Part shown: in pieces, positions 36,001 through 39,000 of the stretch
Layout: every line of letters begins with the position of its first letter
Numbering within the stretch: the first letter of the stretch is position 1
Virus record (IMG/VR): IMGVR_UViG_2529293151_000014
Length of the DNA stretch: 45,248 nt
Source: a virus
Lineage: Duplodnaviria > Heunggongvirae > Uroviricota > Caudoviricetes
Reading direction: 5' to 3' (one strand)
Program-made: the position numbers

Positions 36001-39000
36001 GGGTTTGATTCACCATCATCCAAATACTGGAACACCCTGCCGAAAGAAACGCGAGAATATGTACCAAAGATTCGCGCCGCTCTTAATGCAAAAGAAAACG
36101 AGACGCTGGCTTACTATCAGCAGCAGCAACGCATCGCCTCAACACCAAACCAGACAACATCAAAAATTGACAACAGCCGTAGCAGCAGTACAACTATTGG
36201 CACGGTAGTTGTTAACAGTAACCCGACAACAGTTGATGCTCTTACCAGAAGCGTCAATCAGCAAGTTAGCCGGGCGTCAACAAACGCGGCATTTTCCAGT
36301 GCAATGCCTTAGTCACCTGCAACGTTTTCTCTGTTTGTGCCTGTTGACTGAAGTCGGACGGTAAAAATGAAAACCCACCGTCAGGTGGGTTTTTTGTTTA
36401 GCAGTTCTCTCAACTTTTCGTTCTGCTCTCTGAACTTTTCCTGTATTTCTTTTTGCATGGCGATAACCTGGGCTTGAAGTTGAACTAGCGCATCAACATT
36501 TAGCGGAACCGAGACGCTGTTGATTTTATCTGCTATTTCCCCAAGAGTATTTTCTGCATTCAAGGCATCTTCCAGTATCTGCACAATCTCTGAGTTCATT
36601 GATCTGCCGTTTCGTTTGGCTCGTTCAGCTATAGCATCTCGCATCCCGTCAGGGAAACGCACAACAAACTTTTCGTAATCTTTAACCTGCTTTTCAGCCA
36701 TAACATCACCTCAAAAAAAACAATGATGGCATATTGCTATTTATATTCAATGATGGCATATTGCTTTCAAGGCATAATGCCATTACGTAAAAAGGAGTGA
36801 TCAATGGAAAAGAATGAAGTGAAGACAACTCTTCGGTATCCGTACCGTTTTAAGGAGGAGGTGAAACGCATCGCTAAGGAAGAGGGGATGTCAGAAAACT
36901 CAGTGTTGGTTCAGGGACTTGCTTGGTGGTTGAAGTACCGGGAGAAAATGCGGAATGCTCTCTAAAAATAACGAAGCCCCGACAGCGGGAACTGGCGAGG
37001 CTTCTACATCAACAAATCTGATCGGGAAATATTGACATGAAAAGTATAGCAAAGGCACAAAACGATTTCACCATCTTCAAATTCGGCGACAGTGAAATCC
37101 GCGTCATCAACAAGTGCGGTGAGCCGTGGTTTGTAGCAAAAGATGTTTGTGATGCTTTAACCCTGACTAACTCACGCAAGGCGCTTACTGCACTTGATGA
37201 CGATGAGAAGGGAGTAACTTTAAGTTACACCCTTGGTGGTGAGCAGAATTTAAGCATTGTGAGCGAATCAGGTATGTATACATTGGTTTTGCGCTGCCGC
37301 GATGCCGTCAATAAAGGTTCAGTCCCGCACAAATTCCGCAAGTGGGTAACAGCAGAAGTTCTGCCTTCAATTCGCAAATATGGCGAGTATGTGAAAGGCA
37401 AGAAAACCACAGTTGAGGAAAGAACACCGCTACGCGATGCAGTAAACATGCTGGTAGGAAAGAAAGGACTTCGCTATGACGATGCATACAATATGGTTCA
37501 TCAGCGTTTTGGTATTGACAGCATTGATGAACTTTCAATTGAACAAATCCCGCAAGCCGTAGAGTACATCCACAGGGTAGTGCTTGAAGGTGAGTTCATT
37601 GGCAAGCAAGAGAAGAAAGCAAACGAGCTTTCTGCAAAAGAAGCAAACAGCCTTGTATGGTTATGGGATTATGCCAACCGCTCACAGGCATTATTCCGCG
37701 AACTGTATCCGGCGCTAAAGCACATTCAATCAAACTATTCTGGCAGGTGCTACGACTACGGCCATGAGTTCTCGTATGTTATCGGAACGGCGAGAGACGT
37801 TTTAATCAACCACACACGAGATGTTGATATCAATGAGCCAGACGGACCAACAAATCTTTCCGCATGGATAAGGCTTAAGAATAAAGAATTGCCGCCTTCT
37901 GTTCATCTGTATTAATGACGCATCTGGCGGTGAAAAAAAACCGCCAGTGTGCTGCTGGCGGCCTATGTCACACCCTTACTACCACATAAGGAATGCCTAA
38001 TGACTTTTAAGAATGTAGCAAACATCGGATCCGTTGTCACGGATAAAACCATTGACAGCCAAAGTCTTCTGATGATGGTTAATGAAGCTCGCAAGTTATG
38101 TGGAGAGCCATCAGTACGTAACAACAAATTCATCGAGAAAATTGAGGATGAATTGGAAGGCGAGACCTACACAAAAAGTGTAGGTCGGAAAAACGGGGCT
38201 GACATTGATGTTATCTCCATGACTATCAAGCAGGCGCTTCGTGTTGCTGCTCGCGAATCTAAAGCAGTTCGCCGAACACTTGTAGACAAACTTGAAAGTA
38301 TGCAAGAAGCGCACATTAAAAGCGGTAAATCAGCGAGTGGACTTGTTGAGTATCGTCAAGCGCTAACACTGAAAATGACGGTTGAAGCTGTTACCAATCT
38401 GTTCGATTTGATGCCAAATCTTGCGCCGGAAGCAAAGCAGACTGCTGCAGCAAGCATAATCAACCCGCTCGTTGGTTTTAATGCAATACCTCTTCCGGCA
38501 ATAGAAGAGCATTACTACTCAGCAGGGGAGGTTGCAGAGCAGCTTGGAGTAACGGCCAACAAGATTGGTCGCATTGCTAACGCAAACAACCTCAAAACTG
38601 AGCAGTACGGGAAGTTCTTCCTGGATAAATCTGCGCATTCCAGCAAACAGGTGGAAGCATTCCGCTACAATGCGGAAGGTGTTAAAGCACTAGAACACCT
38701 GGTTCATGGGAGTAATGTTGCATAATGGCAAAGAAAAAATATGGCATTATGCCGCCAAGAATCAAAGGAAGAGCCAGGGTAAAAGGCGATGCTGGAAGGT
38801 ATCACATTCTTGGAGTTCTGTGGCATGAGAGAGCTTTAATTTTAAGTAGACCTCATGGGTATATTGAAAAGGTATCTATAGATAGAATTGAGATTCTTCC
38901 CCTTACTCCTGAAGAAGAAGAAACGTACGGACTTTTTGATAACTAGCCAATTCACTAAACCCAGCTTCGGCTGGGTTTTTGTTTAATGGAGAGTAGATGA

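Follow-up and report, generated by a model that had tools for sequence, protein, structure and literature searches.

A probable P22 immI-type secondary immunity module in the late operon of a contractile-tailed lambdoid prophage, with a candidate second antisense RNA

Results

The viral DNA that we analyzed, a stretch of 45,248 nucleotides to which we refer throughout as the window, carries a compact block of genes between its tape-measure gene and its first baseplate gene. This block (36370-38978) is very probably an intact immI-type secondary immunity module homologous to the P22 one, an element known in P22-like phages as the "ant moron" (Villafane et al., 2008; PMC2629481). It lies in the Q-dependent late operon of a contractile-tailed lambdoid prophage. 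The block has the gene content and order of such a module, its parts and the primary repressor gene are homologous to P22 mnt, arc, sar, ant and c2, it contains regulatory repeats and terminators, and its components are spread as a mosaic among phages. The initial annotation had proposed a P22 immI-type circuit at this place, and each element of that circuit could be recovered: a Mnt-like protein, an Arc-like protein, Ant and a C2-type repressor, plus sar (Table 1). The cassette is an ordinary immI copy in the tail genes of an E. coli prophage, at a site already known to hold one in related phages; all that is new is that its second antirepressor-like gene is probably guarded by an antisense RNA of its own.

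Table 1. Positions in the window of the cassette features and of related genes.
Feature	Position	Strand	Evidence or remark
Primary prophage repressor	9047-9697	-	92% identity to P22 C2
Q antiterminator gene	17681-18304		
604-aa protein, SLT domain	upstream of cassette		PHROG "lytic tail protein"
Bidirectional intrinsic terminator	36370-36393	both	+ strand -17.2 kcal/mol (z -5.0); - strand -15.1 kcal/mol (z -4.0)
Mnt-like ribbon-helix-helix (RHH) repressor, 106 aa	36381-36701	-	Pfam Arc domain, 1.6e-19
18-bp direct repeat, copy 1, CAATGATGGCATATTGCT	36721-36738		overlaps predicted Pant -35 and Pmnt -10; putative Mnt-like operator
Predicted Pmnt	36723-36750	-	TTGAAT, 16 nt, TGc-CATCAT; prediction only
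Predicted Pant	36734-36762	+	TTGCTA, 17 nt, TGg-CATATT (extended -10); prediction only
18-bp direct repeat, copy 2, CAATGATGGCATATTGCT	36748-36765		overlaps predicted Pant -10 and Pmnt -35; putative Mnt-like operator
Inverted repeat GGCAT-A-ATGCC, GGCATAATGCC	36771-36781		about +1 to +12 of predicted Pant; putative Arc-like operator
Arc-like RHH repressor, 53 aa, first gene of Pant operon	36804-36965	+	phrog_582 Arc-like, 1.6e-10
sar antisense RNA orthologue	36966-37036	-	Rfam RF00262; two hairpins, the second a terminator
Antirepressor Ant, 292 aa	37037-37915	+	Bro-N N-terminal domain and P22_AR_C (1.1e-28)
Psar	37043-37071	-	GTGAAA, 17 nt, TG-TATACT; inside first codons of ant
Candidate second sar-like antisense RNA	37931-38005	-	about 75 nt; terminator hairpin 37938-37964 and U-run
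Second antirepressor-family gene, 241 aa	38000-38725	+	phrog_1726 "anti-repressor", 1.3e-100
Promoter of candidate second antisense RNA	38012-38040	-	GTGACA, 17 nt, TGc-TACATT; within codons 5-13 of the 241-aa gene
73-aa protein	38725-38946	+	phrog_4977, function not assigned in PHROG
Intrinsic terminator closing the cassette	38957-38978	+	-14.6 kcal/mol (z -3.5)

The surroundings of the cassette are those of a contractile tail. On its 5′ side lies the gene for a 604-aa protein, which we take from its position to be the tape measure, preceded by a tail-assembly-chaperone match (weak and below the cut-off), a tube gene and a DUF3383 sheath gene; on its 3′ side are baseplate genes for a Dit-like protein and a Pam3-gp18 plug, together with a Baseplate_J gene. 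The placement inside a contractile-tail gene cluster was thus described correctly in the initial annotation, but the oddity that it implied was overstated, since in P22 itself immI is part of the late operon, where it sits between gene 16 and the tailspike gene (PMC8022706; PMC2629481), and the Edwardsiella myoviruses GF-2 and Edno5 have a cassette at the same junction. Strong terminators had been placed on both sides, at 36362-36397 and 38958-38984, and we found one near each of these positions. The left one is predicted to end the tape-measure transcript on the plus strand and the mnt-like transcript on the minus strand, and its stem contains the stop codon of the mnt-like gene. With its position between tape measure and baseplate, a terminator on either side and a Q gene in the same window, the block has the features of an independently regulated late-operon insert. 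We also considered SOS control of the cassette and ruled it out, as a pattern search for the LexA box (CTGT-N8-ACAG) gave three matches in the 45-kb window, all of them outside the cassette.

Of the two small proteins flanking the operator region, the minus-strand one belongs to the Arc/Mnt family of RHH proteins and the plus-strand one is Arc-like, in agreement with the initial annotation. The minus-strand protein shares 47% identity over 43 aa with the N-terminus of P22 Mnt, and its matches in a search of PDB sequences are AmrZ, Mnt and Arc, with PDB 1mnt at 3.2e-6; in a pairwise comparison, its C-terminal 55 aa showed no sequence similarity to P22 Mnt, which has a tetramerisation domain at that end. 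The plus-strand protein of 53 aa is 38% identical to P22 Arc over 29 aa, and its Pfam Arc score (17.5 bits) is under the cut-off of 20.4. Its structure model, with an extended N-terminus followed by two helices, fits an RHH protomer, and the best PDB matches are chains of P22 Arc; the shortness of the protein leaves their Foldseek E-values at about 1.

The spacer between the two genes had been reported to hold two exact 18-bp direct repeats and a perfect palindrome. The repeats are indeed exact: the two copies of CAATGATGGCATATTGCT are the only ones in the window, with no further copy even at three mismatches, while 0.08 copies are expected from shuffled sequences and two copies were seen in 0 of 100 shuffles. 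The second element, GGCATAATGCC, is present as an inverted repeat, but it consists of two 5-bp arms around a central A and is hence no strict palindrome. Alone it would lack significance; its position and its conservation in relatives add weight. The standard promoter scan reported nothing in the mnt-arc spacer, so that the predicted Pant and Pmnt are the best-scoring candidates from a looser custom scan, and both are weak matches to the consensus (8/12 plus a TG). The Pant positions of GF-2 and phi330 read TTGCTA/TTGCCA and CATTAT, and the predicted Pmnt lies back-to-back with Pant and overlaps it, as in P22.

Natural recombinants among the relatives bear on which protein would use which site. 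Loci that encode the same KQVKDY(E/D)KF N-terminus of Mnt but carry another second gene (L060, GF-2 and phi330) have kept the CAATGRTGSCAT repeats and lost the palindrome, and loci that carry the same Arc with a Mnt of only 44% identity (L083 and L084) have kept GGCA-N3-TGCC at the same place and lost the repeats. With repeats and palindrome each co-varying with one of the two proteins in these module swaps, the few recombinants available suggest that the 18-bp repeats are the operators of the Mnt-like protein and the palindrome that of the Arc-like protein. This layout would be the reverse of that of P22, in which O-arc lies between the promoter hexamers and O-mnt at the start site. A 13-nt copy of the operator palindrome also occurs at 38741-38753. 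We rejected it as an extra operator, as the same sequence is conserved in JEP4-type loci with unrelated regulators; it is the 3′ arm of a hairpin that spans the junction of the 241-aa and 73-aa genes (-12.2 kcal/mol, with a z of only -1.95) and more likely belongs to the module formed by these genes.

The antirepressor had been annotated as a Bro-N protein, and this was borne out, with a P22_AR_C domain following the Bro-N domain. The C-terminal 171 aa share 83% identity with P22 Ant, while the N-terminal domain is Bro-N and not P22_AR_N; a sequence search of the PDB returned no relatives of solved structure. Equally well founded was the earlier mention of a P22-type primary repressor, whose gene lies far from the cassette and whose product is, by analogy with P22, the presumed target of Ant, P22 C2 being the known target of P22 Ant.

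Between arc and ant, complementary to the ant ribosome-binding site, we identified an orthologue of sar, which the initial annotation had missed. It aligns to the full length of the Rfam model at 28.5 bits (E 0.0075); divergence, with compensating changes, in hairpin 1 and in the inner stem of the terminator keeps it below the gathering score of 43. Its predicted fold (-26.4 kcal/mol, z -5.3) is the two-hairpin fold of P22 sar, and its promoter shares with P22 Psar the ten nucleotides TTGCTATACT, the -10 hexamer among them, in an unchanged register to the ant ATG. Eight distinct sar variants in related loci keep the terminator helix, some with compensatory changes; in RNAalifold the covariation term for these eight was weak (-0.12), partly because the alignment places two of them (L004 and L074) out of register. 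The sar of Kapi1, beside an ant gene 94.5% identical to that of the window, scores 72.4 bits, above the Rfam threshold. The -10 element, register, fold and terminator are thus all conserved, and sequence comparison identifies this RNA as the sar of an ant moron.

Two further genes after ant had been noted, and both are present. The first encodes 241 aa from an ATG preceded by the ribosome-binding site AAGGAA; a GTG at 37949 would open the longest ORF and was not chosen. The protein has no match in Pfam or NCBIfam, including the curated Bro-N, Phage_pRha and ANT/KilAC domains, and a sequence search of the PDB found no relatives of solved structure. Its structure model (pLDDT 73.5) has a Rha/Bro-like N-terminal domain, a helical middle part and a KilAC-like winged-helix C-terminus. 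With Foldseek, this model matched antirepressor/KilAC entries of BFVD, which are predicted viral proteins, at 4e-9, and its PDB matches (RacA, BldC and MerR, E 0.1-0.5) were limited to the C-terminal winged-helix domain. Family labels and predicted-structure similarity suggest, therefore, that it may be a second antirepressor of Rha/KilAC-like type, and among 80 related loci its gene nearly always follows a first antirepressor gene. The start of the second gene overlaps the stop codon of the first, which it accompanies in about half of the related loci, and its 73-aa product has no match in Pfam, NCBIfam or the PDB.

The promoter scan reported only two sigma-70-like sites in 36200-39100, both antisense, one at the 5′ end of ant (Psar) and the other at the 5′ end of the 241-aa gene. 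From the latter, an extended -10 promoter, a candidate RNA would run to a conserved terminator hairpin shortly before the 241-aa gene and would be antisense to both the ribosome-binding site and the start codon of that gene. In 52 distinct homologues of the 241-aa gene, the codons that contain the -10 and TG elements (codons 5-7) and the -35 (codons 12-13) never differ at their third positions, even at sites of amino acid replacement, in contrast to the variable codons of the promoter spacer; across codons 2-15, 43% of third positions are invariant versus 6% elsewhere. Constraints on translation initiation could account for part of this conservation. The terminator helix is paired in 100% of the cells across 12 diverse sequences, with compensatory changes in 3 of its 8 pairs. 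The candidate RNA is not in Rfam, and none of the papers that we consulted describes it. On these grounds we are inclined, with moderate confidence, to regard the cassette as a circuit of two antirepressors and two antisense RNAs, in which the 241-aa Rha/KilAC-like gene is guarded by its own sar-like RNA. This unit of gene and antisense RNA would then be conserved in the ant morons of several Enterobacterales, Escherichia, Salmonella, Serratia, Klebsiella and Morganella among them, and would move between podoviral, siphoviral and myoviral late operons.

Discussion

The regulatory workings of the cassette we infer by analogy with P22. In a lysogen, the Mnt-like protein made from the leftward promoter would bind both 18-bp repeats over the -35 and -10 of Pant and keep arc, ant and the downstream genes off. 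Upon infection, or when Mnt is lost, Pant would fire briefly and Ant would be made, which would bind the C2-type repressor non-covalently and so inactivate it. The Arc-like protein, as first product of the operon, would then turn the operon off by binding the inverted repeat at the start site of Pant. From its promoter in the first ant codons, sar would pair with the ant ribosome-binding site and block translation on read-through transcripts, including those of the late operon, and the candidate second antisense RNA may control translation of the 241-aa gene likewise. The flanking terminators would insulate the cassette from ordinary transcription, while Q-modified late transcription would read through to the baseplate genes.

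The cassette might instead act mainly on other prophages or on host defences, with Ant and the 241-aa protein inactivating heteroimmune repressors upon infection, or serving some other regulatory role, and with little part in the induction of its own prophage. P22 Ant has been described as acting non-covalently on repressors (literature cited in PMC2629481 and PMC12111858). In P22-like, Stx and myoviral genomes, the ant and 241-aa modules seen here stand beside primary-immunity regions of many types. Among 5426 complete E. coli genomes, 1186 (about a fifth) match parts of the query, namely part of the mnt-ant stretch, and the N-terminal domain of Ant has been swapped relative to P22. The resident repressor and the C-terminal part of Ant, however, are close to a known pair of target and antirepressor in P22, and we consider this alternative unlikely, though it is compatible with a P22-type role in secondary immunity.

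Even less probable is that the cassette is a decaying relic without function. Decay does occur in such elements: P22-like phages with a degraded ant gene, or with a remnant that retains only Mnt, have been described (PMC2629481; PMC8022706), the 241-aa gene is a 5′-truncated pseudogene in FDAARGOS_1288, the closest E. coli relative, and ant is split in strain IGC_RcoliRes_1.1. In the window, however, all five ORFs are intact, the repeats are exact, none of the predicted promoters, the sar promoter or the terminators is missing, and the mnt-like and arc-like genes are annotated with the same RefSeq protein accessions, and thus identical sequences, in three independent E. coli genomes.

That the two RHH genes encode antitoxins or partition-type regulators of a toxin-antitoxin or stabilisation module is effectively refuted by the gene content, since the block contains neither a toxin nor an ATPase gene, the RHH proteins match Arc, Mnt and AmrZ best, and antirepressor-family genes and the sar RNA follow downstream; this outweighs the common occurrence of RHH domains in antitoxins, the weak Pfam matches to FitA-like, HicB and ParD-like families, the Panacea-domain gene found at the cassette site in some relatives, and the PHROG label "partition protein ATPase" (phrog_795 for both small proteins, phrog_2685 for the Mnt-like one), which is an annotation artefact because P22 mnt itself is so labelled in the P22 record.

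As a whole, our result is routine annotation. It adds to the picture of the P22 secondary-immunity module as a mosaic cassette that circulates among phages of all three tail types, always in the late operon beside distal tail genes, and the natural recombinants provide a testable operator assignment for two RHH repressors. If confirmed, the second antisense RNA and the second antirepressor-family gene would extend the textbook circuit and would bear on how prophage induction and cross-talk are predicted in E. coli and Salmonella.

Among the relatives, GF-2 (AP014629) and Edno5 have the same type of tail module, with an SLT tape measure, a Dit-like baseplate protein and a Pam3-type plug, and at its tape-measure/baseplate junction they carry two Arc-like genes, one leftward and one rightward, and a Bro-N Ant, along with related operator repeats (GGTGGCATTATGG) and a sub-threshold sar match. 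In Edno5 this has been described as an ImmI region with Ant, Mnt and Arc (PMC6372524). Nucleotide identity to the window is about 76% and confined to the stretch from the mnt N-terminus through the ant N-terminus; GF-2 differs in having an Ant without P22_AR_C match, an extra leftward gene (ORF-20) behind mnt, and neither the 241-aa nor the 73-aa gene. E. coli relatives of the prophage carry variant cassettes at the same site. Other phages share single parts: the E. coli P22-like phage Kapi1 has the same sar-ant unit (94.5% nucleotide identity), the E. coli P22-like phage JEP4 has the same 241-aa and 73-aa genes (98% identity) beside a repressor with HTH and Peptidase_S24 domains and a short Bro-N/P22_AR_C protein annotated "Rha", and the Stx phages phi330, 2851 and YYZ-2008 have a mnt-ant stretch of about 90% identity inside their tail gene clusters. 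Each of these phages has a different combination of repressor genes, and their virion types differ.

With P22 immI the cassette shares gene order and orientation, mnt being leftward and arc, the antisense sar and ant rightward. In P22, too, the small proteins are a pair of RHH repressors; the arc-ant spacer measures 71 bp here versus 68 bp in P22, and both Psar and the sar start keep their register to the ant ATG. Both cassettes lie in a late operon between DNA-delivery or tail genes and distal tail genes, flanked by terminators. Unlike P22, whose Ant begins with P22_AR_N, the window combines a Bro-N domain with the shared C-terminal part, and its Mnt-like protein has a longer C-terminal domain that bears no sequence relation to the one in P22 Mnt. 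The putative operators have other sequences and apparently another layout, with two direct repeats over the promoter hexamers and an inverted repeat at the start site. P22 sieA, hkcC and orf59a are absent from the window's cassette, which has instead two extra genes after ant and the candidate second antisense RNA, and the virion into which it is built is that of a myovirus, whereas P22 is a podovirus.

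Gene content and boundaries of the cassette

The cassette is very probably a functional immI-type ant moron. Reading the sequence and listing the ORFs of 36200-39200 recovered every gene of the layout claimed in the initial annotation, with a 102-bp spacer between the leftward 106-aa gene and the rightward 53-aa gene. The strong terminators described on both sides also fold strongly as hairpins, and the left one, which has A-runs and T-runs on either side, is therefore bidirectional.

Features of the cassette and of related regions of the prophage (promoters, operators and RNAs are predicted)
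Feature	Position	Strand	Details
Primary repressor	9047-9697		92% identical to P22 C2
DnaB-like replicative helicase	11607-14000	+	797 aa
Q-type antiterminator gene	17681-18304
Left terminator hairpin	36370-36393	both	-17.2 kcal/mol (+ strand), -15.1 (- strand)
Mnt-like gene	36381-36701	-	106 aa
18-bp direct repeats	36721-36738, 36748-36765		CAATGATGGCATATTGCT, exact
Pmnt	36750-36723	-	TTGAAT-16-TGcCATCAT
Pant	36734-36762	+	TTGCTA-17-TGgCATATT
Inverted repeat	36771-36781		GGCATAATGCC, 5+1+5
Arc-like gene	36804-36965	+	53 aa
sar	36969-37035	-	Rfam, full-length match
ant	37037-37915	+	292 aa
Psar	37071..37043	-	GTGAAA-17-TATACT with TG
Second antisense terminator	37964..37938	-	with U-run
241-aa gene	38000-38725	+	ATG at 38000, ribosome-binding site AAGGAA
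Second antisense promoter	38040..38012	-	GTGACA-17-TACATT with TG
73-aa gene	38725-38946	+
Right terminator hairpin	38957-38978	+	-14.6 kcal/mol

The proteins bear out the divergent RHH pair, the Bro-N antirepressor and the P22-type primary repressor proposed earlier. The Mnt-like protein carries a Pfam Arc domain (1.6e-19), matches the sequences of the solved proteins AmrZ, Mnt and Arc, and is 47% identical to P22 Mnt across the 43-residue RHH region, whereas the C-terminal halves are unrelated. Support for the Arc-like identity of the 53-aa protein is weaker but consistent: its Pfam Arc score (17.5 bits) lies under the 20.4 cut-off, but it matches the PHROG Arc-like repressor (1.6e-10) and is 38% identical to P22 Arc over 29 residues. 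Its AlphaFold model (pLDDT 80), an extended N-terminus followed by two helices, has P22 Arc chains as top PDB matches (TM about 0.6, rmsd 1.5-1.9 Å), then CopG, AmrZ and VapB, with E-values of about 1, as expected at 53 residues. Ant combines Bro-N with P22_AR_C; over the final 171 residues it shares 83% identity with P22 Ant, whose unrelated N-terminal domain is instead P22_AR_N.

The mnt-like stop codon falls within the left terminator, the stem of which (AAAAAACCCACCTGA) encodes the C-terminal KKPT and the stop (36381-36395). Since the Mnt-like proteins of loci L072, L075, L077 and L080 share the ending NKKPT despite otherwise unrelated C-terminal domains, this terminator looks like a mosaic recombination joint. 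The flanking terminators (36371-36394 and 38957-38980) are also direct repeats of each other, 83% identical, and the CCCAGCTTCGGCTGGG hairpin lies directly 3′ of ant in E. coli FDAARGOS_1288 too (L001, about 14270-14300), which together hint that the hairpins flanking the cassette serve as exchange points. The 241-aa gene is 5′-truncated in that strain.

The sar antisense RNA

One part of the cassette missing from the initial annotation is sar. The Rfam match (28.5 bits, E 0.0075) is under the gathering score of 43, and a promoter scan found Psar independently. Ten nucleotides including the -10 hexamer (TTGCTATACT) are identical to P22, as are most bases between them and the transcript start, which has the same register in both phages, one base before the ant ATG. 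The RNA folds into the same two hairpins as P22 sar (-26.4 kcal/mol, z -5.3, against -29.5 kcal/mol, z -5.3). Among the collected loci, the promoter is kept in ten distinct variants and the terminator helix in eight aligned variants with differing inner sequences. The sar-ant unit of Kapi1, 94.5% identical to that of the window, includes a sar scoring 72 bits; matches under the threshold were obtained in GF-2 and in the Stx phage phi330. In all three records the matches (GF-2, 6383-6442; phi330, 3614-3680; Kapi1, 2997-3063; all minus strand) fall within the 5′ part, as annotated, of "ant" ORFs that overlap arc, and the true ant starts are probably further downstream.

Predicted operators and promoters

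The two exact 18-bp direct repeats reported earlier are present and have no further copy in the rest of the 45-kb window, even with three mismatches allowed; shuffles gave 0.08 expected copies and never two (0/100). The "perfect palindrome" also exists, but as an inverted repeat with a central base. It lies at about +1 of the predicted Pant. The best promoter candidates overlap back-to-back, as Pant and Pmnt do in P22. Both 18-bp repeats overlie one hexamer per promoter, and hexamer-like sequences occupy the same positions in GF-2 and phi330.

Natural recombinants among the related loci were informative about which repressor binds where. L077, with a Mnt N-terminus 75% identical to ours and the same Arc β-strand, retains all three sites. 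L060, GF-2 and phi330, with a similar Mnt N-terminus and an unrelated second gene, keep the CAATGRTGSCAT repeats and have lost the palindrome, while L083 and L084, with the same Arc and a Mnt only 44% identical, keep GGCAATTTGCC in place and have lost the repeats. In L012, which shares the Mnt C-terminus and differs at the N-terminus, the operators are entirely different. On this basis we provisionally assign the repeats, probably, to the Mnt-like protein and the palindrome to the Arc-like protein, the reverse of the P22 arrangement. As GGCA-N3-TGCY is common to all three sites, both repressors may cross-recognize them, and this detailed model is less certain than the immI-type identity.

A perfect 13-nt inverted copy of the palindrome (ATGGCATTATGCC, 38741-38753) pairs with 38720-38730 in a hairpin over the 241-aa stop codon and 73-aa start (-12.2 kcal/mol, z -1.95). 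Its conservation in loci whose regulators are unrelated makes a role as an operator improbable. At the Mnt position, JEP4-type ant morons carry an HTH plus Peptidase_S24 (LexA/CI-like) repressor (JEP4, 2355-2924, minus strand), which suggests SOS-cleavable control of their antirepressor genes.

The 241-aa gene and a candidate second antisense RNA

Pfam and NCBIfam searches found no domain in the 241-aa protein, which matches phrog_1726 "anti-repressor" (1.3e-100). For a model built from 26 homologues (pLDDT 73.5), the structural matches are predicted viral proteins of the antirepressor, KilAC and Rha kinds (4e-9 to 1e-4); over the last 70 residues, the similarity is to the winged-helix domains of RacA, BldC and MerR. 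We compared 80 IMG/VR loci encoding this protein, the window included. In nearly all, a first antirepressor gene (Bro-N/P22_AR_C or P22_AR_N/P22_AR_C), itself under an RHH or HTH-S24 repressor, stands directly 5′ of the 241-aa gene; this order is seen between gene 16 and the tailspike gene of P22-like genomes as well as between tape measure and Dit in the window's myovirus. About half also carry the 73-aa gene.

The longest ORF over the 241-aa gene starts upstream, at GTG 37949. Within codons 5-13 of the 241-aa gene lies the only sigma-70-like site besides Psar in the scan of 36200-39100. With the minus-strand terminator, it would give an approximately 75-nt RNA complementary to the 241-aa ribosome-binding site and start codon. 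Across 12 diverse sequences there is no variation in the -35, the TG or -10 positions 1, 2, 4 and 6, and the terminator helix is paired in 100% of cells, against 23-51% in slid controls; 3/8 of its pairs show compensatory changes. This hairpin goes with the 241-aa module irrespective of the upstream gene, with a recombination joint within the A-run. Among 52 distinct sequences of the gene, codons 5, 6, 7, 12 and 13 never differ at the third position even though their amino acids do (N/T, V/L, A/T, V/I/T), while the spacer codons 8-11 are variable; the share of codons with an invariant third position is 43% over codons 2-15 and 6% over the remainder. Together these comparisons make a good case for a functional antisense promoter, short of proving a transcript. 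In Rfam the candidate RNA matches no family (best, a chance-level SgrS, E 0.56), and the chances that it is real are about evenly balanced.

Placement of the cassette and comparison with known phages

The early genes are P22-like, and the window joins an early region with P22-type C2 and Q genes to a GF-2-type myoviral virion module; nucleotide-level coverage of the window's late half stays at or below 8% for every sequenced phage of the phage collection. Over its full length the window corresponds to IMG/VR contig IMGVR_UViG_2534681700_000005. In the helicase, LAGLIDADG and Hom_end homing-endonuclease matches (about residues 393-454) between the DnaB N-terminal and C-terminal domains suggest an intein. 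The tail genes include a DUF3383 sheath, an E217-gp32-type tube and a weak match, under the Pfam cut-off, to a tail assembly chaperone. Upstream of the cassette, a 604-aa protein with an SLT domain is taken as the tape measure because it follows the tube and chaperone genes; the baseplate genes comprise Dit-like, Pam3-gp18 plug and Baseplate_J. The closest E. coli relative, in FDAARGOS_1288, adjoins ybhB and the bio operon (bioA), where the lambda attachment site lies.

The P22 immI-type circuit does lie inside a contractile-tail cluster, as first proposed, but the placement is not unusual. Variant cassettes fill the same junction in other E. coli relatives: mnt-arc-ant on its own or, across L002-L005 and H63-H75, different RHH pairs, an HTH repressor replacing Mnt, and extra P63C-domain or Panacea-domain genes; this junction is a hot spot for accessory genes. 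Parts of the query are matched in 1186 of 5426 complete E. coli genomes. In the Edwardsiella myovirus GF-2, two Arc-like genes and an Ant gene occupy exactly the position of our cassette; for its relative Edno5, an ImmI region comprising Ant, Mnt and Arc has been described (PMC6372524), and the variable insert was named "ant moron" by Villafane et al. (PMC2629481). The placement is therefore normal for an immI-type module and already documented for this myoviral lineage: neither the type of module nor the type of site is new.
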